64,000 bases of DNA from contig NC_083277.1 of assembly GCF_963506605.1 (NCBI RefSeq), positions 17,794,001 through 17,858,000 on the forward strand, written 5' to 3'. The notes under the pieces are model-generated. The model made no database searches. It worked only from the letters and a program-made list of their open reading frames with translations, and had not been told where the DNA came from. This DNA comes from Zootoca vivipara (lineage: Eukaryota). Position 1 is the stretch's first letter. Every line of letters starts with the position of its first letter. Positions 30,701 through 63,434 of this stretch are shown one piece after another. Made by a program: the position numbers and the translations under genes.

Positions 30701-30708
30701 GCATCCAT
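18067..30708 (-). CDS. TRIM27/TRIM39-like class IV TRIM ('TRIM-B'), complete. Exons 30708-30283, 27395-27300, 26414-26184, 24531-24509, 22839-22721, 21677-21621, 18584-18067
   Basis: [22 protein letters not shown]-box [15 protein letters not shown], coiled-coil exons of 96/231/23/119 bp, 57-bp linker exon, terminal PRY-SPRY exon ([31 protein letters not shown]). All GT-AG and in phase; extra micro-exons cannot be excluded. Confidence 0.88.
18770..18897 (-). mobile_element. tRNA-Lys-derived SINE with CR1-like 3' tail (second copy ~24277-24430)
   Basis: Minus strand GGATAGCTCAGTTGGTAGAGCATGAGACTCTTGATCTCAG... followed by CATTGCAGGGGGTTGGACTAGATGACCCT tail. Confidence 0.75.
20066..20265 (+). 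mobile_element. RTE-type LINE 3' fragment (longer copy ~37520-38040)
   Basis: Encodes [19 protein letters not shown]-terminal motif; ends in a (GAA)n tail; the two copies are near-identical. Confidence 0.7.
21696..22320 (-). mobile_element. L2/CR1-like LINE 3' fragments with (TTA)n tails (related: 43513-44100; another family 20750-20880, 31170-31345, 44330-44640, 47270-47630)
   Basis: (AAT)n microsatellite followed by a shared TTTATACCCCGCCC... sequence in several copies. Confidence 0.6.
25240..25814. mobile_element. Mariner-like MITE with nested CpG-rich hAT MITE (25472-25789)
   Basis: Outer inverted ends CCCTGTTTCCCTGAAAATAAGAC / GTCTTATTTTGGGGGAAACACAG with TA flanks; inner CATAG...CTATG ends with TSD GTGTCTTA/ATGTCTTA. 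Confidence 0.65.
26737..26886 (+). mobile_element. BovB (RTE) 3' fragment
   Basis: GGAGTGCCTGGCGTGCTCTGGTCCATGG..CACGAAGAGTC..CACAACTAAAC, same as the 3' end of the 50455-51018 element. Confidence 0.75.
27535..27886 (+). mobile_element. Sauria SINE (other copies ~62080-62446 and 62891-63238)
   Basis: GGGTGGCGCTGTGG..GGTTCGAATCCC head, AAAGTGCAAGTAGATAAATAGGTACC core, (CCTTTA)n tail. Third copy has TSD TGCCTATAAAAC/TGCCTGTAAAAC. Confidence 0.85.
29310..30246 (+). mobile_element. L1 3' fragment interrupted by a hAT MITE (~29578-30034)
   Basis: [18 protein letters not shown] matches the C-terminus of the L1 ORF2 at ~41670; the MITE is the same family as 52043-58290. Confidence 0.7.
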
Positions 30709-39500: not shown

Positions 39501-42500
39501 AGTACATCAGGCAATAACGAGAATGAAAGTAGGAAAAGCCCCAGGACCAGATGGATTATCAGCAAAATACTATAAAGTTTTAAACGGACAGCTGATACCG
39601 ATTTTAGAAGAAGTGATGAATGATATTCTTGCAGGAGGAAAGATCCCAAATACATGGAAGGAAGCGTATATTACATTGATTCCAAAACCAGGAGCGGATG
39701 GCTTAGAAGTCAGAAATTATAGACCAATTTCTTTATTGAACAACGATTATAAGCTTTTTGCAGACATTATGTCCAAGAGATTGAAAGAAGTTTTGAATGA
39801 AATGATACATAAGGATCAAGCTGGTTTTCTTCCTGGTAGACAGTTAAAGGACAACGTCAGACATATAATAGATGTAATAGAATATCTGGAAACCAAGATA
39901 GATAAGCCAGCAGTATTAATGTTTGTGGATGCAGAGAAAGCATTTGACAATATATCTTGGCAGTTTATGAAGAAAAATCTGGAATCGATGGTTGGCAAAG
40001 ATTCTTTTTTGAATGGGATTGAGGCAATATAGTCAGAACAAAAAGCAAGATTGATAATTAATAACACATTAACGGAATATTTTGACATCACAAAAGGAAC
40101 TAGACAGGGGTGTCCCTTATCCCCTTTATTATTCATCATGGTCCTGGAAGTACTATTGAATAGATTAAGAGATCTTTCAACTATTAGAGGAATTAAAGTA
40201 GGTGCAAAGCAATTTAAAGTGAAAGCCTTCGCGGATGATTTGGTCTTAACTCTAGAAAATCCTAATGAAAGTGTTGCAGCGGCTATAGAAGAAATTGAGA
40301 AATTTGGACAATTAGCAGGATTTAAATTAAATAGACAGAAAACAAAGGTGATGGCAATGAATATGACGAAAGAGGAAAAGCAAGAGCTACATCTAAAATA
40401 TGGTTTTGATGTGGCAAAAAAAGTAAAATACCTTGGAATATGGATGACAGCAAAGAACATTAACTTATATAGTGACAATTATGAACCAGTATGGAGAGAA
40501 ATAAAGAAAGACCTGGAAAGGTGGACTAATATGAACATGTCATTCTTAGGAAGAATAGCAGCAATTAAGATGAATATCCTACCTAAAATGTTATTCTTAT
40601 TTCAAACTATACCTGTGGTGAAGGGTACAAGACAATTTCAAGAATGGCAAAAGATTTTGTCAAGATTTCTCTGGCAGGGGAAAAAACCTAGAATAAAACA
40701 TAAAATCTTGGTAGACAGAAAAGAAAGAGGTGGTTTCTCCCTGCCAGATTTAAGACTTTATTATGAAGCGTCTTGTATGTGTTGGATTAAAGAGTGGATA
40801 ACGTTGAAGAATACTGACCTGCTAGATTTGGAAGGTTTTAACAATAGATTTGGGTGGCATGCATATTTATGTTATGACAAAAAGAAGTCTCATACTGGGT
40901 TTACCAATCATGTGATAAGAAGATCTCTGTACGAGGTGTGGGAAAGAAATAAAATGCTGTTAGAGACCAAAAAACCATGGTGGGTTTCACCAGCAGAGGT
41001 ATTAACAGTGAAGAAAGTAAATATGGAGGGGAGGTGGGCCACTTATGAGGAAATTTTGATAAGAACTGATAAAGGATGGAGACTTAAACCCTATGAAGAA
41101 ATTAAAGGAGTTTTAACAGGATGGATACAATACCATCAAATAAATGATGTTCTTAGGGAAGACAGGAAAATAGGTTTTGAGGACAAAAGGTCCAAATTCC
41201 AAATAGAAGTGCTAGAAGGCAAAACAAAGCTTCTGTCAAAAATGTACAATTTGTTATTAGAATGGTATACGAAGGATGAGTTGACAAAAGAAGTGATGAT
41301 CAAGTGGGCAAAAGATTTTGGGCACAATATTGATTATGACGCGTGGTTGAAATTATGGACTCAAACGTTGAGATTTACAGCATGTACTGCTTTGAAAGAA
41401 AATGTGTATAAGATGATGTATAGATGGTATTTAACACCAGTTAAATTAGCCAAAATGTATAGAATGAGTGACAAAACTTGCTGGAAATGTAAAGAGAGAG
41501 ATGGTGAATTTTATCATATGTGGTGGACATGCGATAAGGTAAAAAGATTTTGGGAGATGTTATATAATGAGCTGAAAAAGATGTTTAGATATACTTTCCC
41601 AAAAAAACCTGAAGCATTTTTACTAGGAATAATGGGAGGAGAGATTAGAAAAGAAGATCAAGTATTGTTTATGTATGCGACAACCGCGGCTAGGACTTTG
41701 TTAGCCCAAAAATGGAAATTACAAGAAATTCCAACGATTGAGGAGTGGCAGATTAAAATGATGGACTATGCTGAACTCGCAAGGATGACTTGCAAGATCC
41801 GCGACCAGGGGGAGACAAGGTTTCAAAAAGACTGGAGTAAATATGTGGATTATATGGAGAAAAATTGTAGATCTTTAAAAACACTTGCAGGATTGAAATA
41901 AATCCTACGAATTGACCAAACAGTTAAAAAGGAACTGCAAAAATGTAGTAAACAAGAAACCCGCATGAAGGGAGGGGGGGAAGTCGTAGCTCGGCAGAGC
42001 AAAATGTTAGATGAAAATTTATAATGTTGTGTATAAAAGAATGTTTTTTTTTATTATTTTAATTGGATAAATTGGAAATTGAATAAAAATTTATTTAAAA
42101 AAAAAAAAGAAGAATTATTATTCCAGAAAGTCCTAATTAAGTAGATTTGCCTTTCCCTGGGAACTGAATTAAAAATCTCCCCTGTCCCTACGGCTGCAAC
42201 ATACTCAGAAATTGTGTAACCGTTACTGAGCCCCAAAACTACTGACCTCTTGTGCCTCTTTTCTTCACTTCGGCATAAGGCAACTCAAATAATCTTGTCC
42301 TGCCTTTCCGGACTCCTAGTTCCTCTTTTGACAAATATATGCTCTCCAGTTCAACTGACACAGCAGCTAGAGTAAGAGAGGAGAAAAATGGAGATTAGAT
42401 TCCACAAAGCTGGTGCGCTTGGGCCAGTGGTTTTCAGAATTATACATTCAAGGAACTCTTCCCCCTTCAAATTATATAATGAGGAGCTCTGGTGTGACTG

Positions 42501-43633: not shown

Positions 43634-46600
43634 TTTTATTTATACCCCTTCCTCCCCAGTCAAAATCTGGCTCAGGGCAGCTAACACCAATAAAATTACA
43701 ATAAGACACAAAAGAAAAGAAAACAATAAATTAATATACAGATTAAAATACAATATTAAAATTTAAAATGCAGCCTCATTTTAAGTAGTCCATAAATCAA
43801 AACCATGAGGGAGGAAAACACAGGGGTCAGACTGAATCCAACTCAAAGGCCAGGCGGAACAGCTCTGTCTTGCAGGCCCTGCGGAAAGATGACAAATCCC
43901 GTAGGGCCCTGGTCTCCTGTGAAAGAGCGTTCCACCAAGTTGGGGCCAATACTGAAAAGGCCCTGGCCCTAGTTGAGGCCCATCTAGCCACCTTATTGCT
44001 CGGGATCTCCAGAATATTGTTGTTTGTGGACCTTGAGGTCCTCTGCAGGGCATACCAAGAGGGGCATACCAGCATATCCGCCCCACCCCCAAACCAGTGA
44101 TTGTGTGTAAAGTGGATCAAGGCCTCGCATAGTGGTTTGACAGGTAGTGTGTTCATAATGAAAGTTGTGATAAGCCACCTAGAGAATATTGTGGATGGGC
44201 ATAAATGTAAATAAGCAAGTGGAGATTTATAAAGCCAGCATGGTGGATGAAGGGGAGAGCAGAGAAAGGGAGTGAAGGAAATTCTCTCTTTGGCTCACCC
44301 CTCCCATGGTGATGTCTCCCCATGCCCAGTATCTCCTCAGCTGAGTTTCCCCAGCCACTCTGGGCAGCTCCCAACAGATTAAAAACAGAATAAAACATCA
44401 AATATTAAAAACTTCCCTAAACAGGGCTACCTTCAGATGTCTTCTAAAAGTCAGATAGTTGTTTATTTCCTTGACAATCTGATGGGAGGGCGTTCCAAAG
44501 GGCAGGTGCCACCACCAAGAAGGCCCTCTGCCTGGTTCCCTGTAACTTTGCTTCTCGCAGGGAGGGAACCGCCAGAAGGCCCTTGGCGCTGGACCTCAGT
44601 GTCCGGGCTGAGCAATGGGGGTGGAGATGCTCCTTCTGGTAAGGTATCTCTTTGCTCCCCTCCTCCCTCCATCCTATCTACTGTGTCATGTCCCACCAAC
44701 CGGAGAAAAGGTACATCCTTGGAGAAGGAAGCAGAGTCAATGTGACCCTTGCACCTTGCACAGATCCTGCAACCTTCATGCCTGTCTTTAATACTGGTCT
44801 GAATGCATGAGAGAACCGTACCTGCTCAAGGTGTTTTTGAGATCCTAGAGATGGGAGAGAGAACAGAAAGTTAGATCAGGCTAATCAGACATACATAGCC
44901 CATTGTTCCACATTGTTCAAGTTCCATATTCCTGCATTGCAGGGGGTTGGAAAATATGACCCTCTTGGTCCCTTCCAGCTCCACAATTCTCTGATTTTAA
45001 GAATTTCTACTCTTAACTTCTCTCATTGCAAGGTCTCTCCGGATACTTTGCCTGAAGCAGAGGGACAATGCTTGCATCTTTTCTCTGCTTAAGCGTCTTA
45101 ATATTTATTCCCAGGTGAAAACACACTTTAAATACTTGTAACGTCATCTGTTTGCAGTCGTTACTTCTGCCCTGCCAGTCCTTTTTCTCCCATCTTCCTT
45201 TTGTTATTTCCCCCCCAAAGGCTTTTTTATTTTGAAAAGTAAATAAATAAAAAGGTTTTCATCTGTTCAAACAACAAAGAGATAAAAGAAATAACAATGA
45301 GTACTAACCATCTCTCTCTCTCTCTCTTTGGCACGTTCATCAGCTGGCCAAACTCTGACATCACTCTGATGCAAGGTGATTGACAAGTTGGAAACCCCAC
45401 CCACTTTTCATGCAGCCTCCAGGAGTATGGGGAAAATAATGACCCGGCCCACTGGACAGATCCCCTACTCCTGCTTTAGAGAGTCTATGGTGTTTTTGTA
45501 ATATTTGCTTTTCTTAAGCAAGACGAATGCCTCGTGCAACGAAAAACTCACTAGATGAAAGCGTCTAGTGATTCTTTGCTGCCTCGCAAGACGATTTTTG
45601 GGGCCTTTTTTATTATTGCTGTCTGCCCTTTGTTTCCGCAAGACGAAAATTTTCGTAAGACGGCACGACCCACGGAACAAATTATTTTCTTCTTGCGAGG
45701 TACCACTGTATACAGGAAGAGCCTGAAGGTGCTGTTGCTAAACATCAAATCTGCAGAGAGATCCTGCAACCGCAACATGCTTTCAGTCCCTCAATTGAAG
45801 TCACATGCTCACTGTTAGAATCATAAAATCGTAGTCACCTAGTCCAACTCCCTGCAGTGCAGAAAATCTCAACACTTGGTTTCCCATCCGATTTGAAACC
45901 ATAGCGAACCCTTCTTAGCTTTGTGCTAGCAGTTTTGTTGCTACACCGCTGATTTGCCAATGTTGTGTGACTAGCCCTTGAATTGGCTCCCTCCAGGAAA
46001 TTCAAGCGAGAACACTAAGCCACATGTGAAGACCAAAAAAAGCCCAGTTCACTGCTCCATTCTAGATCATCAGACCTTTTCCAGCCCCGTACATGGTAGT
46101 GAGTTAGGTCCTGAATACAAGCAGGAGCTGTCCTCCAAATAAACATGTGGGAGGACAATTCCCCCCATGCTAGATCTAGATTTACCCCATGCCTGTCTAA
46201 ATTTAGTAGCCCTGAGGCCCCAGAGCAGGGGTAGGCAACCTAAGGCCCGGGTGCCGGATGTGGCCCAATCGCCTTCTCAATCCGGCCTGCAGATGGTATG
46301 GGAATCAGCGTGTTTTTACATGAGTAGAATGTGGCCTTTTATTTAAAATGCATCTCTGGGTTATTTGTGGAGCATAGGCATTCATTCATTCCCCCCCCCC
46401 CCAAAAAAATATAGTCCGGCCCACCACATGGTCTGAGGGACGGTGGACCAGCCCATGGCTGAAAAAGGTTGCTGACCCCTGTCCCAGAGGAAGGATCCCT
46501 GCTCTCCTTACCTTGAGGAATTCACTCACAGGTTGCTTACATCTCTCTTCCACATCACGGACAAGGTCATGAAGGTTGGAAATCTCTGATGTGGCGGTCT

Positions 46601-49186
46601 TCTCCTCCATTATCACTTCCTTCTGCAGCTGTTCTAGCCTGGCCAGCAGGAATTCTTCTTGATCCTCTAGAAACTGATGGAGCTGCTCAAATTCAGACAC
46701 AATCTTCTTCCCTTCGGAGTCTAACCTTTCCTGCAAAGAGCAGGTCAAAAGGAAGGCAGGGAAGGTCAACAGAAAATGTTACGGTATAGAGTTGTGGCAT
46801 TATCACCTGAACCACCGACTTTCCCCATCACTCAGCATTCACAGAGGAAAAGCACTACTTGCTGATATTTTTCTTGTTATGCACCTATTAAAGACACAGA
46901 AGCCGGGGGGGGGGATGGGCAACTTGGACTGCTTTCATCCACCTGGCAGCCCTCCACATGTTTTAAACTCCAATCAGGTGTTAAGTCTGAGAACTGCTGA
47001 CTTACCAGACGTTTCAAGCTTCTTCTCGCTTCAGCTAATTTCAGGGCCTGGAGTTCCTCTGTCTTTTGCTTCCAGATCTTCAGTTGCATCTGAAAGTGTT
47101 CCTTTTCAACAGAGAAATTATAAGCAGGCTTTTGGGGCATGGAGGTGGGAGTGGGGAACCTAGTAGCCTATAGTAACATAGGAAGGGGGAAGTGCTTTTT
47201 GTTTTTATTATGTATTTTGTGTTTTTATGTTGTGAACCGCCCTGAGATCTATGGATAAAGGGTGCTATACAAATTTAGTAGTAGTAGTAGTAGTAGTAAT
47301 TTATTATTTATACCCTGCCCATAATAATAATAATATATTATTTATACCCCGCCCCAGCCACTCTGGGCGGCTTCCAACAAAACATTAAAATACAGAAATC
47401 CAACAAACATTAAAAGCGTCCCTAAACAGGGCTGCCTTCAGATGTCCTCTAAAAGTCTGGTAGTTGTTGTTCTCTTTGACATCTGGTGGGAGGGTGGGTG
47501 CCACTACGAAGAAGGCCCTCTGCCTGGTTCCCTGTAACTTGGCTTCTCACAGCGAGGGAACCGCCAGAAGGCCCTTGGCACTGGACCTCATGAACAATGG
47601 GGTTGGAGACGCTCCTTCAGGTATACAACAACAACAACAACAACAACAACGGGGAGGTAACTTATGAGTCTGAGCAACCTGTGTGGGGCTTAGTAAGTCA
47701 CATAATTCTCACTTGAAATAATCAGCAAAAGGGATAACGTGCTTCCTGCCAGTTCTACATATGGCAAGAGTCAACACACTTGAATAACTTGACCACATTC
47801 ATGGCATGTATTTAAATTGCTATTATCACTTTAAACAGTCAAGGCTTCCCTGAAAGAATTATGGGAACTGTAGTTTGTTAAGGGCACTGAGAGCTCCCCT
47901 CGCAGAACTACACTTCCCAGAGCAGCTGAAGAATCAGCCCCCCTTCACAGAGTGCTCTGGGGATTGTAGCTCTGTGAGGGAAATGGGGGGGGGGGTCTCC
48001 TAACACTTCTCAGCACCCTCAACAAACTACGTCTCCTAGAATTCTTCGGGGGAAGGTGTGACTGCTTAAAGCGGCGCCATAGCACTTTAAATGTGTGGTA
48101 TGAATGTGACCATAGTCATGTTCATTAATTTCAAGGGGTCTACGCTGAGTAAATCACATGTAAGAAGCTACCTTATACCAAGCCCATCTAGCTGTGTATT
48201 GTTCACACGAGCGTTCACACGTATTGTTCACACGATCGTTCCTCAACCTTAGGCCCTTCATATGTTGTTGGACTATAACTCCCATCATCCCTAGCTAGCA
48301 GGACCAGTGGTCAGGGATGATGGGAGTTTTAGTCCAACAACAAGGTAGAGAAAGGCTGGTTTACACCGACCAACCCATAGCAGCTCCCCAAAGGCAGGAA
48401 ACATTCCCTGTCTCCCCTGGAGATACTAGGGATTGAACCATGGATGTTCTGCAAGCGGTCCAGATACTCCACCCTGCCTGAGCTACGCCCCTTTCCCCAA
48501 AACCAGGGGTCAGCAACCTTTTTCAGCTGTGGGCCACTCCACCATCCCTCAGACCATGTGGTGGGCTGGACTATTTTTTTTTGGGGTGGTGGTGGTGAAC
48601 GAATTCCTATGACCCACAAATAACCCAGAGATGCATTTTAAATAAAAGCACACATTCTACTCATGTAAAAGCAAGCTGATTCCTGGAGCGTCCGCAGGCC
48701 GGATTGAGAAGGCGATTGGGCTGCATCCGGCCCACGGGCCTTAGCTTGCCTACCCCTGCCCTAAACTACCTTGTAATCCTGAGCAGCTTCTTCTATCGGA
48801 ACGACAGTGTGATTTTGATGCTCGTTGGAAATAGTGCACACCAAGCAGATGGGCATCTTGTCGTCTTTGCAGAAGACCTTGAGGTGTTCCAAGTGCTTCT
48901 CACAGACTCTCCCCTCTTCCAGTGCTTTGGCAGCTTCCAGATTCAAGCATTTGACTATCTCCACGATTCTCGCCAGATGCTGGTTCTCTCTGAAGCTCTT
49001 TTGGTGGCTGCTTTCCCCACACCGGGGGCAGGACACGCCAGTCTCCTGCCCCCACCAGCACTGAGTGATGCAGGCCTGGCAGAAGTTGTGCCCACAATGT
49101 ACAGACACCGGCTCTTTGAAATACTCCAGGCAGATGGAGCAGGAAGCTTCCTTGCTCAGGTTTCCTAAGAGAGCGTTTGCGTCCAT
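36575..49186 (-). CDS. TRIM27/TRIM39-like class IV TRIM ('TRIM-C'), complete. Exons 49186-48770, 47101-47006, 46730-46512, 44844-44822, 43476-43361, 42366-42247, 37083-36575
   Basis: RING CSIC..CGHNFCQAC..CPRC, B-box CEKHLEHLKVFCKDD, exons of 96/219/23/116/120 bp, PRY-SPRY exon NVTLDRDTA..DNPERFDTYPCVLG..YWEVEV..LDYEEERVAFFD; all GT-AG and in phase. Confidence 0.88.
38057..42108 (+). mobile_element. 5'-truncated L1 LINE: end of ORF1, full ORF2, 3'UTR, poly(A)
   Basis: TSD GAAGAATTATTATTCCAGA (38038-38056, 42109-42127); AATAAA at 42082 and A-tail; ORF1 tail SESEEEEEDKDLSKEPDQD*. Confidence 0.93.
38152..41901 (+). pseudogene. L1 ORF2 (APE endonuclease + RT + C-terminal Cys motif) with a single in-frame TAG at 40030-40032
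   Basis: WNVHGL, LQETH, GDFN, SDHN (EN); KAPGPDG, YRPISLLN, DAEKAFD, GTRQGCPLSP, FADD (RT); CWKC..HMWWTC. The two ORF-track pieces are in the same frame. Confidence 0.92.
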
Positions 49187-49206
49187 GATTCCCTAGTCAG
49201 AAGTGA

Positions 49207-51513: not shown

Positions 51514-54500
51514 ATGGAGAACCCGGTGGAGAGCCTGCACAAAGAAGCCACTTGCTCCATCTGCCTGGAGTACTTCCGCGACCCGGTCTCCATCCCTTGC
51601 GGGCACAGCTTCTGCAGGTCGTGCATCGCGCAGTGCTGGAAGGAGCGCAGCACCGACTTCTCGTGCCCTCAGTGCCGGGTGGTGTCCCTGCAGAGGAATT
51701 TCAGGCCCAACCGCGAGCTGGGCAACGTGGTGGAGATCGCCAAGAGGCTGGGCTCCGGCGCCGAGCAGGAGGAGCCGGGAGGCGGCGGCGGGAGGCAGGT
51801 GTGCGAGAAGCACCGCGAGGCGCTGAAGCTCTTCTGCAGCGAGGAGGAAGACCTCATCTGCTGCATCTGCCGGGAGTCCCGAGCGCACAGGAGCCACGCT
51901 GTGTTCCCCGTGGAGGAAGCGGCCCAGGATTATAAGGTGAATAGTGGGGGGCACACGCGCGCACACTTGACTGGTGCTATTTGGCGCCCTATTGGGGCAC
52001 CCCCTCCTCAGAATGGTGGAACATAGGAAAGTGCCTCCCACCCAGTGCTGGATTTACTTATAAGCTAAACAAGCTATAGCTTAGGCCCCCAAAAATTTGA
52101 AGGAAAAACAAACAAACCTGGATGTACATTTCCAAAATATAAGATATAAAATAAAATAAAATAAAACCTACATACAGCAAATGAAACAAGAAGTCAACAA
52201 GGAATGCATTTAAGGAATATTTGAGAAACAATAACATAAAAGAAACCCCTTTGGAAGAGCTAGACTGAACCTTGTACAGTATATTATAAATCTATATTAC
52301 AAATGTTTAAATATATGAATAAGTAAGGGGAAGGTAATATGTATACAAAACTGTGTGAAAACATCCAAATAATAGACAAAATACAGCAAGTTTAATTGGA
52401 AGTCATTTTAAAATTAAGGCAAGAGAATATAAGTTGGAAAGTGATAGAATAATTGGTTTTATGTTCATTGTTTTGTTATTTGTTACTGGAACGTATAATT
52501 TATGTTTGTAAGTATATGTATGTAATTTGTTTGTATGTAATTTGTTTGCAATATAATTTTTAAATAATAAAGATCTATACATAAAAAACACTACATACAG
52601 CAACAGTGTTTTGTGTTGTTGTGTAGGCTCCTATGTGTCGGAGAACCAGCCGACTCTTAGGTGCGAGGAAATCATGAGACGAGAGTCAGGAGTTTCAGAT
52701 AGAGAGCATGAGCAGAGTGCTGAGCGAAGTGCGCTGAGCAGAGTGCTGACTGCCTCTCAGCCTCAGCTCCTTTATTATGGATGGTTTCCTTGTAAAAAAC
52801 ATTAACCTTTAACCTATACATGACTCATGCAAACAAGGAAGATGTGTAAACAGACAGGCTGGCGCCAGTGGTCACTTGATTGATTACCCCCAATAAACCT
52901 GTGCCTTACACAGAGAACTCCATTTGTACATTCCCACAGAGTGTTTCCTGTGTACATTCCCACATCACCTCTTTCTTTTTATTTTTAAGCAACAGGGTAA
53001 ATTAACACGTGGGAAGCCAGATAGGGAGTCGCTGATACCTCGCAATGAAGGCTCCACGTGAAATTCCAGTGGAGGGGCGTGCAGCCTGAAACCAGGTCAT
53101 GCATTGACCAAAGAGGGAGGGTAAACATTGAATGCAGCAACATAACATAACCAAGCCACAGGCTAATCCCATAACCGTCAAAAGTGTTTTCCTGATCCAG
53201 GCACCGTTAGGCAACCAAGACAGCAGCCATTCCCATGGATCAAAACCCACGGCAGGTTGCAAGGGCTGTGCAGCCACCAAGTTCTCCATTTCTTGTATAG
53301 TATGAGTAATGTTAGGACCATTATCTTGCACATACATGCAACAATGACTATGTATTAAGGCACATACGCCTCTTTTCGAGGCTAAAATCACATCCTGTAA
53401 TTCTGTATTGATCAATTTCATGCCTTTAACTGTGTCATTGAACAAAGCCTCTGTCCAGTTAGCTAAGTGATGCAAATCTCTATAATTCATTTTGCTACTC
53501 CTAATAATGGCAAAATACTACGAGCTATCTGAGTATCAGTATATTGTGTTATAGGGGCATTGACTTCGTGTTTATTGCGCAAGCGGGTGCGAGGAAGAGC
53601 ATCTAACTTATACACCAGTGGTATCACTACCCCTAGAGTGCAAGTCCCTGAAAAAGCAGAGGGAATCTCTTTGTATGCATTCTTACCACACAAAAGCCAC
53701 AGATTTGATTGTAACACGCATGTGGATCTCCAACTCTTCTTCATCCAATCAAACCATGAATAAAAAGCACGGCATGTAGCCTGTTGGTAATATGTCATGT
53801 ATCTGGTAACATTATTAATTGTTACCTTGGGCCTACCGCTTTGGGTAGTGACGTTAAGAAAACAAGAGCTACCATTAACATATAAGTCCAATTACAATAA
53901 GGATAATGACCTAAAAATCTGCTACTATCGTGATTAAAACGAAAACATCGTGGAGCTACTTCTAATAATGATAATATAACAGGGGGTGAACTAATACGAT
54001 TATCTCTCATATTATTACTAATTCTAAAAGAATCATTAATAGGAATACCATGCAGTAATATCCCCTGAATGACTTGACTGTGAGGGAATATGTAAGCAAA
54101 TCCAACAATCAGAATAGTTAAGCAATTTCGCAAACTGAGAAATATCCTGTACATAGGTATTATTATTCCATATGGAATGATAAGAGTCATGTCTTTGATA
54201 CTTCTGTAAAATGGCAGCACGCCTAGAGCGATTATGGCTTGCAGATCGAATAAATGGAAGGTGATCTTGACGGAGTGCAGCCATATTTAGAGCACGATGC
54301 CGCCAGGTGCAATGGTGTTTCAGACCGGGTGACAGGTGCTGTCCTCCAGAAAGAGTGTAGAAAGGTCTGCCTCCTCCCTCAGCGGCATCTGCGACTGAAT
54401 GGGCTGAAGAAGAAGCTGTAGATGATTGCCAGGGTCGTACACAGCGTGCTGGCACCCACAGAGGGTCCCCATCGATGGCATATCCATGTCCCCAGGCAAT

Positions 54501-57500
54501 CAGCAGTACAAGGCCACGCCATGCTGGATCCGGATGTTTCCTGAAAGACACAAGGGAGCGAGGCAGCTCCTCCTCTTTTCTAAAATGTAATTCTGCAGGA
54601 GTATGCTGCTTATTATGCGGGTATAAAAGATAAAAAAGCACTTGATGCACAATATAAGATATTTCCGCAATAGGAGCGTTCTTTCCACTAAGTTGTGGAA
54701 AAAGCAGAGATTTAAAAGTTGAATGCTCAGCAATTGCTTGTCCTGTAGAATTAAAAGGAATACCATGAGTTAATTTCACATTCCACAATGTACAGAAATC
54801 AGAAAATCGCTTAGAAATATACGCAGGGCCATTATCCGTTTTGATGCTGCTAGGCTTTCCCATGACCGAAAAACAGCGCAGAGTGTGCTGTATTACGTGC
54901 CTGGCTGTCTCCCCTTTTAAGGGCGTCGCCCAGATGAAGCCCAAAGACGTGTCCACCGTGAGGTGCAGTCTTGAAAAAAGAGGCTAACAACGGGGTGAGA
55001 GTGACATCCATTTGCCAAATTGAGAGAGGGGCAATCCCTCTGGGATTGACAGCATCAAAAGGAAACATGGTAGGGGCTTTAGAACAAGAAAAACATTGCG
55101 AGACAATGTCTCGTGCCTGAGAAATTGATGTTTGAAAAGACTTGGCTAGAACCCTGGCAGATTGATGAAAGGTGGCATGGCTCAGCAGAGGGTCAAAAAA
55201 CAAAGAAAAGACCTGCTCTTGCTTCAAAGCAGCATCTGCTACAGCATCTTGTAGCAGACGCTGCAAAGAGAGAAACAATTGCAACAAAATCATCATCCAG
55301 AGCAGGATAATGTATGCCACTGACAAGAATGTCAAAAATCTGGAGACATACTGAATATCAACAATCAGGTTAAACTTCACATTCTGAAACAGATCAAAAG
55401 CCAAAATCACCACAGCCAATTCAGAACGCTGAGCGGATTCCTGCTCCGTTGTAAATCTTGTCTTCCAGGCCCCCTCCTCCCTCCACACAACCACCCCCCT
55501 TGTCTTGGTCCCATCTGTGAAGAGGGTGAGAGCAAAGGGGATAGGGGAGGGGGAGCACAGGGAACGGAGGTAATAGGAGACAGAGGAAAGAAAGATCAAT
55601 GCCACAGCACATTGTCTTCCCTTGATAACAACGTCCATAACAGCTGCTGGAGAAGTATGTACGTTCTGCAGTGATGCATGGGGCAAGTGTAGCCATTCAA
55701 CAAGACAAACGCGAGACTGAGAAAATTCTGCAGGCTGGTAGAGAACAGCTGTGGGCAGCAATTTTGTGGCAAAAACAGCCAATGACAATAGTCCTGTGGA
55801 ATCCAGGCGATCCACCATAGATTTTTGCAAATGGTGATTAATCGTTGCCAGGGCTGATTCCATATCCAGTATGATGTCTGCCGGTTGCTTATGTCCTTTC
55901 AGGGCATTGTACAAAGGTGATAGTACACACGTTGGCAAGTCTATGTATGATTTTGCCCAATTCGAATGTCCTAACAGCAGTTGTAGATCCACCAGCCAGA
56001 GTACCGCTGGAAAATGCAGCTGCAGTATCAGGGGTGCTGCTGCTTGTTGCGTATCCTTGTGTTCCAGGTATGTGATAGGCAGGGTGCGTTGAATTTTTTC
56101 CAGGGCGATTTTAAGCCCTGCAGAGGTGAGATCCTCTGTCAGCTGGTGCACCCATGTTTCAGGAATGTCTTTAGCGGCAAGCAATTTTGCTGTGTGGGAT
56201 TCAGAGCCGATTGATTGACAGGCTTTTAACATGTCGGCTATTGCCACATCAGGTGTAGCCACCAGCGGGCGCAAAGATTGTTTACAGTCTTCATTGGCAT
56301 TATCAAAGGCTAATTGTCTGATGATTACTCCTTGCGCTGCTGTATCTTGAACCTGGCGTCTAAGGGTATTGTACAGTCTATTTATGAAAGCGCCATAAGG
56401 TTCAGTGGGTCCTTGCTGCACGCTCCCCCATCGCTCCCCTTTTTTTAACTTCACAGGAGGAACAGACATCAAAGCCTCCTGGGCAGCTGAAATTGTGGCG
56501 TCCCAGTACTGAGGATCCAGAGCCAATTGCTGCGCAGTTGTTAAAAAATTCCCAGCTCCTGTGAGACCATCCAGGACGTCTCCAGGTGTTAACATAACAG
56601 GGGGAGGGAGGGGGGGTGCCCCTGCTGCCAAGGCTGCAACGGCATTGGCATGTGCTGCCTGTGCAGCATTATTCAAATTTGTTTGGATATCATGGACCCG
56701 GCGTTGACAAGCCCAGGTCCAACTTTGCATAAAAATTATCATTTGATTTGGCTTGAGCACTGTTCTAGCCAGTAATTTAATATCCTCTGGCAATAATTGC
56801 TGTTGAAAAATAGTGCCAAAGAGACCAAGAGTATACGGGGAATGCAATCCATTGTCTCTTACTGACTGATACAATTCTTTGATGTATCGGAGTTGAAATT
56901 GCTCGTGCCGTGGTGCCCCGCCCCCAGGTCCCGCAGGCACAATCACAGTAGACTCAAAAGCCAGCAAAGGAGCTGCTGCTTTAAGAGATTCCTGGAGCTT
57001 TGTAGTATTCCCCCCCTCCTGCTTCACAGTGGGCATGGTACTTTGAAATGCAGGCAAAACCTGAGAGACATAAGCTGGAGGGGGTGGGGTGGCAGACAAA
57101 GAAAGTTGCTGTTTTCCTGGCGGAGTTAAATTAGGTGGGTCCGGACCAGGAGGGATGGGGGCAGGCAATGCCGGAGAAACAGAAGGCTTCAGTGGGGGAG
57201 GCATGCATGCGGGTGGTGCAGAGGGGAGGCTTGAAGCAGCTGCCAGAAAGATATTCTTTGGCATGACTAGTGCCAAGCATGCTCTTATTTTCCCCCACGT
57301 AATTAAGACACGTACTCCAATGCTGGGATGAGCATGAAAATGTTCACCAAGTTTGTCCCAAAAATCTAATTCCCAAGTTCCATCCTCCGGAAACCATGGA
57401 CAGTGCTCATAAGCAGTATGAATAAAAGTAATAAGATCGTCTTCTGAGGCATGCTGATTGTTAGAAGTCAGCAGGTATTTTAAGTCTTTAAGAAAACGTT

Positions 57501-60500
57501 TCTGTGGCACAGAAAGCGAAGTGCCCATTGTAAATGCAGGAAGAGAAAAATAAGCAATAGCTGGGAGCCAACTCACCGGGGATCCTAAGATGAGGTAGAC
57601 GTCTGAACCCTTGCCGGGCGGGTGAGTAGCTGATGCAGGACCACGACGTGCGTCCTTTCAACAATGGCGTAGAACTTTTTAGCCTCACACGGGGCACCAC
57701 TTGTCGGAGAACCAGCCGACTCTTAGGTGCGAGGAAATCATGAGACGAGAGTCAGGAGTTTCAGATAGAGAGCATGAGCAGAGTGCTGAGCGAAGTGCGC
57801 TGACTGCCTCTCAGCCTCAGCTCCTTTATTATGGATGGTTTCCTTGTAAAAAACATTAACCTTTAACCTATACATGACTCATGCAAACAAGGAAGATGTG
57901 TAAACAGACAGGCTGGCGCCAGTGGTCACTTGATTGATTACCCCCAATAAACCTGTGCCTTACACAGAGAACTCCATTTGTACATTCCCACAGAGTGTTT
58001 CCTGTGTACATTCCCACACCTATGATGTAAGTAATAGGCCCCGCCTGCTTGCTAAAATATCACTGGTTTTCTCTTTTCTAGATATAGGGTGCCTACATTC
58101 TGCATGGACTGGTGACATGGTAACATGTGCAAATGGCTTTAGATACCTATTCAGTCCATAAGTTACCATATAGCATATATTCAACACAAAAAACAGCGAC
58201 AATTTGTTGTTGACAAAGGACAGCTGGACATATAAAGGGCCCAATTACCTTCAGTAGCGTAGGGCCTCATCAAATCTAAATCCGGCCCTGCTCCCACCAA
58301 GTCAGAAGCATTGGTCCATTTTGCTTGGTAATGACAGTGGTTCTCCAGGATTTCAGGATGGAGTTTCAGCCTAGGGCTGCCACATTTCAAAAAAGTAAAA
58401 ACCAGGACACCCTGAGCTGTTGACTCCCAAATTGTTAATTTTTTTTAAAAAAATGCCGAAAAACCACAATTTTTCTATTATTATTATTATTATTATTTGA
58501 ATTTATATACCGCCCTATACCTGGGGGTCTCAGGGTGGTTCACACAATAAAATCAAGATATAAAATCAAATACATAATAAAAATAAAAACAACAACCCAA
58601 TAGCTCCCCCCTCCAAATTGCATTCTCTAAGATCCAGGACAGCGCACTGCCTTTTGGAAATTCCCCAGACGTTGATTCTGCAGACATATGGCAGCCCTAG
58701 TCTCAACCAACTTTACCATGGATGGTTACCCGTAATGAATGCTTTACTTGAGATTCCTGGAATAGATGGCCCTTGGGGTCCATTCCAATTCTAGATTTGT
58801 ATGATTCTACCTGGAGATGTCGGGGATTGAACTTGGGTCCTTCTGCTTGCAAGGCAGATGCTCTACCACCAAGCCACGGACAGGCCCATTCTTGTTGCGG
58901 TATAACAGGCATCCCCAAACTTCAGCCCTCCAGATGTCTTGGACTACAACTCCCATCTTCCCTGACCACTGTCCTGTTAGCTAGGTATCATGGGAGTTGT
59001 AGGCCAAAACATCTGGAGGGCCGCAGGTTGGGGATGCCTGCGGTACAACCTTGCATAGACACTGAACCTCAGAGGAAGGAAGCCGTTATTATCATAATAG
59101 TGAAAACGCTGATAATAATAATGCAACATTATGGTGTTGATGATGATGACATTGAGACCAACCTACCAATATTATTAGTGCTAGTAGCAGCAACTGTAGT
59201 ATTGTTCCTTCCCATCTGAAGAATCTTGTCGGTTAGTCCCCTCCCCCCTTGCCTTTGAAACTATGTGTGATGTTGAAAGTATGTTTGAAGTTGGAGAAAT
59301 AAAATGCTGGGTTAATGCCATAATATTTTATTTCCATTGCTCCATAATCTGGGTGGGTTTCTTTTGTTCCCGTGTTGATTATGGAATATCAGTAATTTTT
59401 TTTTGTATTTCACTATCGGTTAAATTGGATGTAACCTGTTGCTTGTGTGTGAAGCAACATGGGGCATTAGTTACTAACGACAACACTATTTCAAAATAAG
59501 TTTCTATTTGTTTAGAAAGAAATCCAGAGCCGTCTGCAGAGCTTAAAGGAAGAGAAAGAGAAACTCCTGGGGTTAAAACTGGCTGGAGAAAATAGACACC
59601 AGGAATATCTGGTTAGTATAGAATCCTGTGGTATAGCCTAGCAAGGAATGTGGGCATTAGTTTATCTTTATTTAATGTGCTTTTACATCCTGGAACTTGA
59701 AGATATAATCCAGGGCTTTAATCAGCAGACCAAGCAGGAAACAGTGATGGCCGCCAACTTGGAAGGCTTTAAAAGTGGGCTAACAAAATTCACGTAGGAT
59801 AAGACTATCAGTGGTTGGCATCACTAGGGAACAGGGAGGATATATAGACCTTGTAGTGTTCCAAATGCAGCTCTTTTCCCATGGCAACATTTCACTACAC
59901 GTATAAGGAGGGCCATGCTGGATCAGACAAAAGACCTATCCTTTCTACCAGGCAGGTTCTCTGATGTTCTACGGTAGTTGCTTCTGAATTTTAGCTTTTC
60001 ATTTTGTTGCTTTGATTATATTTGCATTTTGATCTGTGCAATCCCCTGCCCCAAATGCAGATGACACCAAATTGAGAGGGGTAGTTAATGCCATGGAAGA
60101 CAGAATCAGGGTTCAAGATGACCTTAACAGATTGGAGAACTATTGGGCCCAAACTAACAAAATGAATTTGAATAGGGACAAATTTAAGATTCTACACTTA
60201 CGGTAAGCAGAAAGAACCAGCTGCACAAATATAAGATAGGGGACACCTGGCTTACTAGCAGTACATGTGAAACGGATGTAGGGGTCTTAATAGACCATTA
60301 GCTGAACATGAGTCAACAGTGTGATGCAGCAGCAAAAAAAGAAAAGAAAAAAGAAAGGCTAATGCTATTCTAGGCTGGATCAACAGAAGTATTGTGTCCA
60401 GATCAAGGGAAGTAATCTCTGTTCTGCCTTAGTCAGACCACACCTGGATTACAGTGTCCAGTTCTGGGTACCACAATTTAAGAGGGATGTTGACAAGCTG

Positions 60501-63434
60501 GGACATGTGCAGAGGAGGGCAACCAGAATGATCAAGGGTCTAGAAACAAGGCCTTCTGAGGAACAGTTGAGGGAGTTGGGTATGTTTAGCCTGGAAAAGA
60601 GGAGACTGAGAGGAGATATGATAGCCATCTTCAAATATCTACCGGTAAGGCGCTCTCATGTTGTGCCTTCAAATTGCGCTGCTGACTTTTAAAAATCAAA
60701 ACTTAGTATATTTTGGTTTTCCAAAAGAGTTCCAGTATTTCAGATTAATTTCTGCTTATTTGAGGGGTGTTTGCTGATCTTCCCAATGCCCTGACCCATC
60801 TTTCTCCCACTTTCCTCCCTATGTTACAGAAGCAAACAGAAGCCGAGAGGCAGAAATTGATGTCCGAATTTGAGCTGGTGCATCACTTTCTGGAGGAGCA
60901 AGAAAAACTCCTGCTGCATCAGCTGAATGAGCTGGAGAAGGAGATTATGAAGCATCAGAAAGAACATGGGGGAAAGTTTTCTGATGAGATTGTCTCTCTC
61001 AGTGCCCTGATAGATGAGATAGAAGAAAAATGCACACAGCCAGACAGCGAATTCTTGCAGGTGAGATGAGGTGGTTGTTGGGTGGGGTAGAACTGAAAAA
61101 AGGACACAACAAACTGAAGAATAAGCCTAAAGCTGTCCTTAACATAACCAAATCCTTATACTTATTGCCCAGTAAGTAATACACAGGGTCCAGCTGAGTG
61201 TATGGTACTTCATGCAGACCAGAAAAGAGCTATACAAATAGCAAACACTATTGTTAGAGGTATCTTTCTACTGCAGTTGGAATGGCTTGCTCAGTAATGC
61301 CTGTCTCCCTGTCTCAGCAACTGAATGCATAATTTCATTCCAGTTAACTCATTTCCCCACTGCCCTGCTTTCTTCTCCCAACGATTAGAAGGTGCGCAGT
61401 TTCTAAACTACGCTGTCTCTGTTTCTCAGATATAAGTGGCTATAATGAGAATCTCCTGTTATGCTCATGTTGATGCAGAGTTCCTGTCTTTCTCTTCCCT
61501 GTCCACCTACGCTCCTCTCTCTCTAGGATATCAGAAGCACCTTGGGCAGGTATGTGGCACTGACATCCACTGAAGGCATGCATTTGCATATATATATATA
61601 TATATGCCCTCAAGATTGTGCTGCTTCATTCCGGTTTGCAGATAGTTTGCTTTTTCAAAATATTAAAGCTGTGGTATACTGTGACAGACCATCTTGCCCA
61701 GAGATGGGGAACCAGGTGTTGCTGGACTCCAGCTCCCATCAGGCCCAGCCTGTGTACCTAACTGTCGGGGATGATGGGAGTTGTAGTCCAGCAACATCTG
61801 CAGGACAACATGTTCCACCATCCCTGATCTAACCAGGACTGTCAACTCTGAATGTGAAGGGTTGCCCAGGATCTCAGGCAGAGTTCTTTCCCGCGATTGC
61901 CACCTGCGACCCTTTAAGTGGAGATGCCATGGGCTGGGCCGGGTCTTTTGTACATGTGGATCTCTGGCCCTTCCCACTTTTGTTAGCAGCTCCTCCCAGT
62001 CTCCAAGCTGAGATGGGCTTTCTATTTCTTCCATATTCATACACACTTTGGATACTCTTGGACTTTGGTTTGTATCACTGTGATGCGGGTGGCGCTGTGG
62101 TCTGTACCGACCGGAAGGTTGGTGGTTTGAATCCCTGCGGCGGGGTGAGGTCCCGTTGCTCGGTCCCTGCTCCTGCTAACCTAGCAGTTTGAAAGCACGT
62201 CAAAGTGCAAGTAGATAAATAGGTACCGCTGCAGCGGGAAGGTAAATTGCGTTTCCGTGCGCTCTGGTTTCCGTCACTGTGTCCCGCTGCGCCAGAAGCA
62301 GTTTAGTCATGCTGGCCACATGACCCGGAAAACTCTCTGTGGACAAACGCTGGCACCCTCGGCCTGAAAGCAAGATGAATGCCGCAACCTCATGGTCGCC
62401 TTTGACTGGACTTAACCGTCCAGGAGTCCTTTACCTTTTTTTACCTTCCAGGATGCCTTTTTAAACAATGGACAGAGGCACTGTGCTCTCTCTTAACAGC
62501 TTCACAAAAGACTGTTGTGGGGAGTCCAGGATATGCTTTTCCTGGCATAGCAATAATAACAAGCAAAATGTGGGATTTAGTCTCTTATGTGGCCTTTTGC
62601 AAAATCACATTGAACAGAATAGTCATAAGACCAATGAATGCACTGAAGAAAAACATTTCCCCAGGTACAAAATCCTGCAATATCACTTATCAGAAAATAG
62701 GATGCTCTTACAGAGAAACTGCAGTCATCTCACTGCTTCTCCCAGGGAGCTAAATGTACTCATACTGTACAGCTCCACCTCTGAGAGACACATACTACTA
62801 TTTCACCTGTTTTATCACAGGGCCAGCTTCCAGGGCTGAATCTTGGATCAGCACTGACTCAGATTTAAGTACAACTTTTGCCTATAAAACGGGATGCAGG
62901 TGGCGCTGTGGATTAAACCACAGAGCTTGGGCTTGCCAATCATAAGGTCGTCGGTTCGAATCCCCGCAACGGGATGAGCTCCCATTGTTCGGTCCAGCTC
63001 CTGCCAACCTAGCAGTTCGAAAGCACGTCAAAAGTGCAAGTAGATAAACAGGTACCGCTCCGGCAGGAAGGTAAACGGCATTTCTGTGTGCTGCTCTGGT
63101 TCGCCAGAAGCGGCTTTGTCATGCTGGCCACATGACCTGGAAGCTGTACGCCGGCTCCCTCGGCTAATAAAGCAAGATGAGTGCCGCAACCCCAGAGTCG
63201 TCCGCAACTGGACCTAACGGTCAGGGGTCCCTTTACCTTGCCTGTAAAACCAAGTGTCACGCAGCCTTAATTGGGCATCTGCAGAATGGGGGGGAAACTG
63301 ACACATTTCTTTTCCAAGGTTTGACAAGGAGCCCTTTCAGTCACCTGAAGAGATGCCATCCAAGGTGGAAAAAAGACTCGGTGAATTATCGGAGAAAAAC
63401 AGCGTGCTCACAAATATCCTGAACAACTTCAAAG
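51514..63434 (+). CDS. TRIM27/TRIM39-like class IV TRIM ('TRIM-D'), partial (3' exons beyond window). Exons 51514-51936, 59516-59611, 60830-61060, 61527-61549, 63319-63434
   Basis: Kozak GCCGCCATGG in a CpG island; [21 protein letters not shown]; B-box [15 protein letters not shown]; exons of 96/231/23/116 bp, GT-AG and in phase. Confidence 0.88.
52181..52590 (+). mobile_element. Short L1-like 3' fragment
   Basis: 13-bp TSD CTACATACAGCAA (52168-52180, 52591-52603); [10 protein letters not shown] terminal peptide; AATAAA plus A-rich tail. Confidence 0.7.
52636..52964 (-). repeat. ERV 3' LTR (329 bp)
   Basis: Preceded on the minus strand by the PPT; contains AATAAA, an AP-1 site TGACTCA and a duplicated TGTGGGAATGTACA. 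Confidence 0.95.
53002..54220 (-). pseudogene. env: ERV env (gamma-type), frameshifted
   Basis: SU CWIC; [15 protein letters not shown]; degenerate furin site RNKH; [13 protein letters not shown] (CX6CC); hydrophobic anchor; at least two frame breaks. Confidence 0.85.
54036..54956 (-). pseudogene. pol: ERV integrase core/C-terminus (frameshifted from upstream ORF) running into env SU N-terminus
   Basis: [24 protein letters not shown]; WVPARCVRP; then [10 protein letters not shown]. Confidence 0.85.
54850..57528 (-). CDS. gag-pol: ERV Gag(MA-CA)-Pol(RT thumb/connection, RNase H, IN N-terminus) in-frame deletion fusion, 892 aa
   Basis: MG myristoylation start; beta-type [11 protein letters not shown]; PSAP and PPAY late motifs; [17 protein letters not shown]; then [41 protein letters not shown]. 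No CCHC knuckles, protease motif or YxDD. Confidence 0.85.
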   Translation of the reverse strand: MGTSLSVPQKRFLKDLKYLLTSNNQHASEDDLITFIHTAYEHCPWFPEDGTWELDFWDKLGEHFHAHPSIGVRVLITWGKIRACLALVMPKNIFLAAASSLPSAPPACMPPPLKPSVSPALPAPIPPGPDPPNLTPPGKQQLSLSATPPPPAYVSQVLPAFQSTMPTVKQEGGNTTKLQESLKAAAPLLAFESTVIVPAGPGGGAPRHEQFQLRYIKELYQSVRDNGLHSPYTLGLFGTIFQQQLLPEDIKLLARTVLKPNQMIIFMQSWTWACQRRVHDIQTNLNNAAQAAHANAVAALAAGAPPLPPPVMLTPGDVLDGLTGAGNFLTTAQQLALDPQYWDATISAAQEALMSVPPVKLKKGERWGSVQQGPTEPYGAFINRLYNTLRRQVQDTAAQGVIIRQLAFDNANEDCKQSLRPLVATPDVAIADMLKACQSIGSESHTAKLLAAKDIPETWVHQLTEDLTSAGLKIALEKIQRTLPITYLEHKDTQQAAAPLILQLHFPAVLWLVDLQLLLGHSNWAKSYIDLPTCVLSPLYNALKGHKQPADIILDMESALATINHHLQKSMVDRLDSTGLLSLAVFATKLLPTAVLYQPAEFSQSRVCLVEWLHLPHASLQNVHTSPAAVMDVVIKGRQCAVALIFLSSVSYYLRSLCSPSPIPFALTLFTDGTKTRGVVVWREEGAWKTRFTTEQESAQRSELAVVILAFDLFQNVKFNLIVDIQYVSRFLTFLSVAYIILLWMMILLQLFLSLQRLLQDAVADAALKQEQVFSLFFDPLLSHATFHQSARVLAKSFQTSISQARDIVSQCFSCSKAPTMFPFDAVNPRGIAPLSIWQMDVTLTPLLASFFKTAPHGGHVFGLHLGDALKRGDSQARNTAHSALFFGHGKA
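57682..57699 (-). other. ERV primer-binding site complementary to elongator tRNA-Met
   Basis: TGGTGCCCCGTGTGAGGC is the reverse complement of GCCTCACACGGGGCACCA, the 3' end of vertebrate tRNA-Met(e) as recalled. Confidence 0.85.
57702..58018 (-). repeat. ERV 5' LTR (317 bp)
   Basis: Direct repeat of 52636-52964, differing only by a 12-bp indel. Confidence 0.95.
60050..60640 (+). mobile_element. CR1 LINE RT fragment
   Basis: GCAGATGACACCAAATT (ADDTK) and [32 protein letters not shown] motifs. Another CR1 3' piece at ~15800-16100. Confidence 0.8.

Follow-up and report, generated by a model that had tools for sequence, protein, structure and literature searches.

An open Gag–Pol fusion frame in a young, non-autonomous class II endogenous retrovirus family of Zootoca vivipara

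A 5,383-bp class II provirus in a Zootoca vivipara window (the whole stretch analysed, 64,000 nt of contig NC_083277.1) harbours an 892-codon Gag–Pol fusion ORF. We consider it probable that this is a young non-autonomous insertion whose frame has been kept free of early stops during helper-driven copying while its amino acids drifted. Selection would thereby act on the frame and not on the protein, most likely in cis during that copying. Long open frames of young endogenous retroviruses (ERVs) are often taken as host co-option; the family-level test described here separates selection on the frame from selection on the protein, and places it on the element and not on the host.

A deleted provirus within a TRIM intron

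Paired TG...CA LTRs, a 6-bp target-site duplication, a primer-binding site and a polypurine tract delimit the provirus, which, on its domain content (Gag_p10 matrix, p24 capsid and RVT_thumb) and similarity matches, is assigned to the class II (beta-like) ERVs (Table 1). A 12-nt tandem-repeat indel distinguishes the 3′ LTR, which contains AATAAA at 52771–52776, from the 5′ LTR. The first-pass annotation had placed the ORF inside a TRIM gene; it does lie within one, but only in intron 1 and in antisense orientation. A TRIM–Gag fusion was ruled out because the provirus is intronic and on the opposite strand. The insertion sits within a TRIM immune-gene cluster. In an empty-site comparison, contigs of one run joined the right flank to letters resembling the left flank, but both flanks are part of a high-copy repeat, which confounds the result as to polymorphism.

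Table 1 Features of the provirus and its host gene within the window
Feature	Position	Strand	Detail
Host TRIM coding exon 1	51514..51936	+	RING, B-box; provirus in the next intron
Target-site duplication, left	52630..52635	.	CCTATG, 6 bp
3′ LTR	52636..52964	-	329 bp, TG...CA
Polypurine tract	52965..52981	-	Adjoins 3′ LTR
env remnant	53005..54579	-	Several small frameshifts and shared stops; gamma-type TM (TLV_coat)
Integrase core and C-terminal remnant	54323..54983	-	Out of frame with fusion ORF
Gag–Pol fusion ORF	54850..57528	-	892 aa, ATG 57528 to stop 54850; without NC, protease, RT fingers/palm
Integrase zinc domain	54853..55203	-	Reaches first catalytic Asp; shifted by +1 at 54981 into 43-codon out-of-frame tail
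RNase H remnant	55204..55548	-	−1/+1 pair 55306/55289; 72-nt His-loop deletion at 55247
RT thumb/connection remnant	55549..56172	-	In-frame deletions of 9 nt and 144 nt
CA-to-RT junction at LLAA	56173..56185	-	1,483-nt deletion, 11-of-13-nt microhomology
Capsid NTD and CTD with MHR	56173..56913	-	Nearest solved relatives are HERV-K Gag/CA
Proline-rich region	56914..57243	-	PSAP and PPxY motifs
Matrix	57244..57528	-	aa 1–95, MGxxxS start
Primer-binding site	57682..57699	-	Complementary to host tRNA-Met(CAT)
5′ LTR	57702..58018	-	317 bp; 0 substitutions versus 3′ LTR
Target-site duplication, right	58019..58024	.	CCTATG, 6 bp
Host TRIM exons 2–4	59516..61549	+	96, 231 and 23 bp; AG/GT borders; frame open with exon 1

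The same annotation had described a fusion in which matrix (MA), late domains and capsid (CA) with its MHR look intact, the frame jumps at LLAA into post-YxDD RT, and further deletions preserve the frame. This description was borne out: the ORF is real, and MGxxxS, PSAP, PPxY and the MHR are all present. Pfam recognized Gag_p10, Gag_p24 N and C, RVT_thumb, a weak RNase_H and Integrase_Zn in the 892-aa ORF; matches to a zinc knuckle, protease or RVT_1 were absent. In longer relatives from the same genome, gag, pro and pol occupy separate frames and the RT has YMDD; compared with these, the 1,483-nt deletion fuses the end of CA to the codons directly after YMDD. This main junction lies at a microhomology of two LLA codon runs, to which its in-frame state may be mechanistically due. 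The frame is also kept across the 144-nt deletion (at 55596) and the loss of the RNase H His loop, and the −1/+1 pair, six codons apart, scrambles residues and restores the frame. The fusion ORF terminates within integrase through the +1 at 54981; the ORF-shortening +1 is present in 22 of the 23 closest copies. The suggestion that such a Gag would be uncleavable was not established, as cleavage in trans by the protease of a helper would be possible.

A dispersed and recently active family

The window copy and 28 others make up 29 family loci in the genome, 25 of which have the CA-to-RT junction; the NC–PR–RT stretch is found at high identity in only 2 of the 29. With essential enzymes absent and a common deletion in many independent insertions, the copies sharing the junction form a non-autonomous ERV subfamily. 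Segmental duplication was ruled out as their source by their separate target duplications. The search of assembly GCF_963506605.1 for a helper with every frame open yielded none. Among the 23 closest copies (hereafter the clade), LTR pairs are free of mismatches in 17, and the window ORF differs by 2.1% from its nearest sibling. Because the ORFs of the 17 copies with matching LTR pairs are nevertheless 1.3–6.2% apart (median 3.6%), the sequence variation is older than the insertions. Recombination between copies is dense, all four gametes being present at 2792 of the 3859 site pairs more than 1 kb apart, a pattern implying that family RNAs would be co-packaged.

The family is transcribed from the sense strand, as seen in two raw RNA runs with the same species label, of each of which 6% was covered. 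Five alleles private to the window copy were unseen among the variants listed for these runs, and the individuals sampled may lack the insertion. RefSeq LOC118085516 (Zootoca vivipara), annotated merely as uncharacterized, encodes an 892-aa protein identical to the window protein at 858 of 892 positions, with the same domain order and junctions; it is another family copy and exactly matches none of the open copies analysed here. The nearest proteins come from lacertid lizards and other reptiles, placing the element outside the rodent IAP lineage. The copies document a very recently active retroviral family in a lacertid genome. A search of the open literature found no earlier description of it among the papers listed; in Wang and Han 2023, Z. 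vivipara is among the screened species, without the asterisk borne by Lacerta agilis.

Stop codons, indels and amino-acid constraint

The open frame had been taken to suggest selection for translation; on both stops and deletions, it is kept beyond chance. Among clade-born substitutions at aa 1–849 (23 copies), non-synonymous, synonymous and stop changes numbered 220, 83 and 1, against 215.0, 74.3 and 14.7 expected (P = 3e-6) under a null that allows for a filter removing more synonymous than other changes. Stops were lacking in gag (0 versus 6.1 expected) and in the pol part (1 versus 8.6), whereas distal IN and env had no deficit (7 versus 8.9). With the window as context, there were 2 stops where 11.1, 9.6 or, under the strictest null, 8.0 were expected (P 0.0008–0.008), and the other five reading frames showed no stop depletion in this test. 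The deficit is limited to the fusion frame and region.

Shared indels within the ORF comprised 12 that were net in frame and 2 shifts, compared with 5 and 7 downstream (p = 0.038, tallied by hand), and deletions of 144, 72, 111 and 18 nt kept the frame in four of four cases (p = 0.012); downstream indels of at least 3 nt, too, often kept it, in six of nine (also a hand tally). Two frameshifts are compensated, one by the −1/+1 pair and one in an independent deletion (copy L058), where an out-of-frame bridge is read through to give a single 711-aa frame. Copy L057 has its own, in-frame deletion; the sole out-of-frame deletion (L056) occurs in a single copy, the one with the oldest LTRs. The fusion frame is open in 16 of the 23 copies. 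Six of the seven frameshifted copies are broken at G or C runs, two having one +1 in common, and these frameshifts may be assembly errors. Older LTRs accompany four of the seven broken frames versus 2 of the 16 open ones (p = 0.045).

By contrast with pairs among longer or outer copies (control dN/dS of 0.17–0.26), the clade-born substitutions gave a dN/dS of 0.92 (0.72–1.19). Of the outcomes that the first-pass annotation had listed as telling against its reading, dN/dS near 1 was thus observed for clade-born changes; neutral-rate stops and absent expression were not, given the stop deficit and the transcription of the family.

A protein-based account would have the fusion protein act in cis, as reported for mouse IAP 1Δ1: nascent MA–CA would join helper Gag while the pol tail tethers its own RNA on the ribosome, replacing NC, so that the tail needs length alone and MA–CA weak conservation. 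This account, which we judge possible but unlikely, predicts the stop deficit as well, and reviews have the 1Δ1 fusion protein acting in cis (PMC6466679, PMC7411935). Consistent with it, dN/dS over all pairs within the clade is 0.46 (0.34–0.64) for gag and 0.75 (0.52–1.08) for pol, with MA (0.40) and CA (0.41) below RNase H (0.86) and IN-N (1.08). Our reading is that these low values stem from alleles that the copies inherited from functional virus or acquired from it, although weak selection on MA/CA fits too; likewise, the clade-born value for MA and CA, 0.76 (CI 0.50–1.30), leaves room for weak constraint. However, among shared clade-born MA and CA changes dN/dS is 0.95, and conserved MA/CA positions changed at the rate expected by chance (37 times versus 36.0 expected; shared changes 16 versus 19.3). 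G2, CPWFP and the MHR core are retained in 23 of 23 copies, but retention of a few codons is expected anyway at such divergence; charge-changing substitutions occur in the CA linker of 22 of 23, and the MHR also varies.

It is improbable that the deleted element is under no selection, its copies being simply young, its junctions in frame via microhomology and its stops purged by recombination with functional virus. The microhomology at the main junction, the dense recombination, the mostly synonymous outer-shared alleles and the seven broken copies would all suit this explanation. Yet imported functional alleles would show dN/dS of about 0.2, whereas the 304 clade-born alleles show 0.92 and still lack stops; env also recombines, yet its stops are as frequent as expected and two of them occur in 10 and 15 copies; and the 144-, 72-, 111- and 18-nt deletions, which could not have come from a working virus, all kept the frame. 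The stop tests already largely refute it.

Very improbable is the proposal of the first-pass annotation that the host retains the locus as a capsid-type dominant-negative restriction factor of the Fv1 or enJS56A1 kind: the copy retains MA, CA and the late motifs, its frame is open, the family is transcribed and an NC-less Gag might in principle disturb assembly, but the window copy has no special status as one of 25 dispersed young copies with a close sibling and intact, substitution-free LTRs, clade-born changes show no amino-acid constraint and do not spare conserved MA/CA (weak constraint being allowed by the all-pairs values), broken frames are enriched among older insertions, the private alleles were absent from the RNA variants listed (from donors that may lack the insertion), and a ratio of about 25 to 1 over the helper would be surprising for an element that poisons it. 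Of the selection for translation proposed there, the option of avoiding nonsense-mediated decay fits best and that of a host protein function is not supported.

Frame-only selection and comparison with known systems

Under our preferred reading of selection on the frame, an RNA would have to be translated deep into the deleted pol to survive for packaging and copying by the helper virus, whose Gag, RT and IN would act in trans. With the 1,483-nt deletion, the gag stop was probably lost together with any stability element behind it, so that an early stop would leave an untranslated tail of 3–5 kb and trigger nonsense-mediated decay; the present stop, about 2.1 kb ahead of the poly(A) signal, would be tolerated. 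Such selection would work on the element in replication and not on the host after insertion. In Rous sarcoma virus (RSV), unspliced RNA falls when gag carries an early stop or when 400 nt downstream of gag are lost (PMC2925335), an effect that would account for the frame-only constraint in the lizard element. RSV is, however, an exogenous alpharetrovirus, whereas the lizard element is endogenous and its stability element only supposed. Co-translational export or tethering, instead of decay, could also produce frame-only selection. Weighing against the preferred reading, too, are the spread of the ORF-shortening +1, the microhomology at the main junction, the seven frameshifted copies, the frequent frame retention by downstream indels and the failure to find a fully open helper in this assembly.

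Fv1 and enJS56A1 are particular loci kept by their hosts, and the Fv1 ORF has been conserved over the long term. The lizard copies resemble them in being endogenous loci with a defective Gag that keeps CA; unlike them, the family is dispersed, still spreading and without amino-acid constraint.

The most active insertion mutagen of the mouse is IAP 1Δ1. A 1.9-kb internal deletion fuses its gag to pol in one ORF, it needs Gag and Pol in trans, and it surpasses full-length copies in number or performance (PMC6466679, PMC7411935, PMC7060167). The lizard element is likewise a class II ERV with a deletion of similar size (1.48 kb) and a single gag–pol ORF, and its in-frame fusion is retained across copies. 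It differs in its lizard host, unrelated virus lineage, tRNA-Met primer, retained broken env and further nested deletions; and whereas those reviews credit the fusion protein in cis, the lizard sequences point to the frame over the residues. Outside mammals, the family provides an independent counterpart of IAP 1Δ1, in which the question of protein or translation can be tested on natural alleles. We give roughly even chances to the broader proposition that the lizard element converged on the 1Δ1 design, its 2.7-kb ORF serving as a translation decoy selected only for the absence of early stops, and that deleted class II elements in general gain the ability to spread by fusing gag to pol in frame, because their RNA survives or is tethered to the ribosome and not because the protein functions.

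The antisense provirus and its fused frame

The 892-codon Gag-Pol fusion described in the first-pass annotation proved to be an open reading frame on the minus strand of a class II provirus, whose primer site is complementary to the host tRNA-Met(CAT). The ORF encodes matrix, a proline-rich region (PSAP and PPxY), capsid, RT thumb, a weak RNase H and the integrase zinc domain, and a domain and motif search of its 892 aa detected no NC, protease or RT core. Its best solved relatives are HERV-K Gag, CA and Pol, and the nearest named protein is a Zootoca vivipara entry identical at 858 of 892 residues. The LTR pair is equal at 317 of 317 aligned bases, the sole difference being one 12-nt indel. 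The provirus was also said to lie inside a TRIM gene, which is correct as to the gene; however, because the host TRIM is on the plus strand and its exon coordinates flank the provirus, the insertion is in intron 1 and antisense to the exons. Read depths place it within a high-copy repeat. The surrounding TRIM cluster includes several RING-B-box and PRY-SPRY exons, and one of its TRIMs has a long acidic insert in the RING, as in TRIM41.

Features of the window, in window positions
Feature	Position	Strand	Remarks
Provirus	52636-58018		5,383 bp; CCTATG on both flanks
Gag-Pol ORF	57528 (start ATG) to 54850 (stop)	minus	892 aa
Hydrophobic stretch	55279-55338	minus	aa 731-749
+1 shift	54981
Host TRIM coding exons	51514-51936, 59516-59611, 60830-61060, 61527-61549	plus
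High-copy repeat	52591-52635, 58019-58290
TRIM gene cluster	5805-7136, 18067-18645, 30061-30771, 36575-37138, 46386-46778, 48761-49192, 51514-61549
C2H2 zinc-finger exon	12528-13667
LINE ORF2-like frame	38122-41901	plus	636 + 622 aa, single stop between; within TRIM cluster

A dispersed family of deleted copies

A junction-region probe of the lizard's own genome gave 29 loci, the window included, after all 31 of 31 candidates were scored; a second probe recovered the identical 29 loci and two weaker matches. All 28 other loci were retrieved, with siblings picked on DNA similarity and frame status not a criterion. The CA-to-RT junction is found in 25 of the 29 loci: the window and 22 close copies (together, the clade) and two with divergent gag. 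In the latter family copies, L053 and L054, the window's junction is combined with a divergent gag allele, which, judged from sequence, would reflect either a recombinational gag swap or two origins of the junction. The clade copies carry separate 6-bp target duplications. The LTR pairs show no mismatch in 17 of 23 copies (12 mismatches over 7,551 bp in total) and the ORFs diverge by 1.3-6.2% (median 3.6%); nearly all variation is therefore older than the present insertions. Linkage falls off within ~100 nt, and four gametes occur in 2792 of 3859 site pairs more than 1 kb apart, as would be expected from co-packaging and recombination of different RNAs. Two copies, L051 and L052, have a changed PBS, yet their LTR pairs differ by 0-1 mismatch. 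With the missing NC-PR-RT stretch as query, the genome gave five matches, two of them close; because pol is split in one of these and gag broken in the other, no helper with all frames open was seen in this assembly. In a related family, the Podarcis muralis protein matches P0004-P0008 (~411 aa) all lack the same part of the N-terminal domain of CA, without loss of frame; they may belong to another subfamily with a deletion, or the gap may be an artefact of the gene models.

The apparent deletions do preserve the frame, as the first-pass annotation held: relative to longer copies in the same genome, the window has lost 21, 1,483, 9, 144 and 72 nt and gained 9 nt, every change being frame-preserving, and a -1/+1 pair with six codons between likewise restores the frame. 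This pair yields a hydrophobic stretch of 19 residues (mean hydropathy 2.5) that, on sequence grounds, could anchor or destabilise the protein. The 1,483-nt CA-RT junction coincides with an 11/13-nt microhomology between two LLA codon runs, and the mechanism of deletion may therefore explain in part why the frame was kept there. The +1 shift is carried by 22 of 23 clade copies, and the ORF terminates 43 codons on, ~2.1 kb ahead of the poly(A) signal. The ORF spans at least 876 aa in 16 of 23 copies; seven carry a frameshift, six of them at G or C runs, where assembly error may be responsible, and in none is a stop the first lesion. LTR mismatches occur in 4 of 7 frame-broken versus 2 of 16 open copies (p=0.045). 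Three copies have independent large deletions: in frame in L057; with an out-of-frame bridge after which the frame is regained in L058, leaving a single 711-aa frame; and out of frame in L056, which has the oldest LTRs. By our own tally of indels common to at least two clade copies, the net frame is kept by 12 and shifted by 2 within the ORF, versus 5 and 7 downstream (p=0.038), although downstream indels of at least 3 nt are in frame in 6 of 9 cases.

For expression, 6% of each of two raw RNA runs with the same species label was read. Provirus reads lie on the strand opposite TRIM exon 1 reads, that is, in proviral sense, with depth 0-16 across the ORF and up to 86 close to the 3′ end. Three reads connect the LTR to the primer site, and contigs of two runs presumed to be RNA cross the CA-RT junction. 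Of the 21 window-rare sites, five are among the variant rows listed, and at these five all or all but one of the RNA reads carry the other allele; the sampled individuals may be without the window insertion.

Stops and amino-acid changes in the clade

Clade-born alleles, defined as those in the clade and not in the six outer copies, were compared with a null that retains mutation type and filter. Across aa 1-849 the null predicts 215.0 amino-acid changes, 74.3 silent changes and 14.7 stops; the clade-born alleles comprise 220, 83 and 1 (P=3e-6), which bears out the earlier proposal of frame retention beyond chance. The deficit covers gag (0 versus 6.1 expected) and the pol remnant (1 versus 8.6); distal integrase and env have 7 stops versus 8.9 expected, including two env stops common to 10 and 15 copies. 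With the window as context, 2 stops were found against 11.1, 9.6 or 8.0 expected under successively stricter nulls, the last at the trinucleotide level (P=0.0008 to 0.008), and this test revealed no deficit in the other five reading frames.

In the internal region of the family copies, clade-born changes are also skewed on the RNA strand, both for non-CpG C>T (87/1022 versus 42/874 for G>A) and for A>G (79/1163 versus 45/1329 for T>C). The direction is the reverse of APOBEC3-type G>A, and RNA-level deamination or transcription bias may be the source.

The comparison of MA/CA with pol remnants suggested in the first-pass annotation gave near-neutral values for clade-born changes: the dN/dS-like ratio is 0.92 overall (0.72-1.19), 0.76 in MA+CA (0.50-1.30) and 1.06 in the pol remnant. 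Conservation in MA/CA was taken from 11 related Gag proteins (11 of 13 matches, P0005 and P0007 excluded as near-duplicates; the pol set used 18 of 20, excluding P0014 and P0026), and at the conserved positions 37 amino-acid changes occurred versus 36.0 expected. Control pairs of longer and outer copies gave 0.17-0.26; strong constraint is therefore detectable by the method. One result speaks against this main reading: when all pairs of clade copies are compared, so that alleles occurring in outer copies too are counted, dN/dS is 0.46 in gag and 0.75 in pol. Because most of the alleles shared with outer copies are silent, in gag and RT alike, and their distribution is a patchwork, we read them as probably inherited or imported; weak selection on MA/CA may nevertheless act.

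Possible causes of the open frame and known counterparts

In this dispersed, recombining, enzyme-less family, early stops have been cleared from the one long frame but amino-acid changes have not. We infer that selection would act in cis on RNAs en route to copying by a helper. The simplest cause would be RNA survival, the 1,483-nt deletion having presumably taken away the gag stop and the sequence behind it, and we regard RNA survival as the probable, if far from certain, reason for the stop-free frame. In Rous sarcoma virus, unspliced RNA is reduced by early gag stops or by losing 400 nt behind gag (PMC2925335). Selection for a protein that acts in cis, the role given to the fusion product of mouse IAP 1Δ1, or for a tether to the ribosome is possible but rather unlikely: the all-pairs gag value leaves room for it, whereas conserved MA/CA positions changed at the chance rate. 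That no selection acted is improbable, the clade-born alleles being nearly free of stops at a near-neutral ratio. A host restriction factor, the capsid-type dominant-negative role originally proposed, is very hard to credit given the near-neutral ratio and the conserved positions changing at the chance rate. The observation of the ORF is real, and it is most probably not a defence gene; judged against restriction factors derived from Gag, such as Fv1 and enJS56A1, it does not show in its clade-born changes the amino-acid constraint on MA/CA that was looked for.

Our literature searches listed no earlier description of this lizard family; PMC10435555, with 12 of its 14 supplements covered, mentions Z. 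vivipara just once in kind, among the genomes screened, and the other two supplements may bear on the family. The frame-versus-protein signal is unusually clean here. The mouse IAP 1Δ1 subfamily is likewise non-autonomous, having lost 1.9 kb of gag-pol, and its fusion product is credited with cis action (PMC6466679, PMC7411935, PMC7060167). The lizard family, although not an IAP, is of matching design and, as far as its sequence tells, would work alike.
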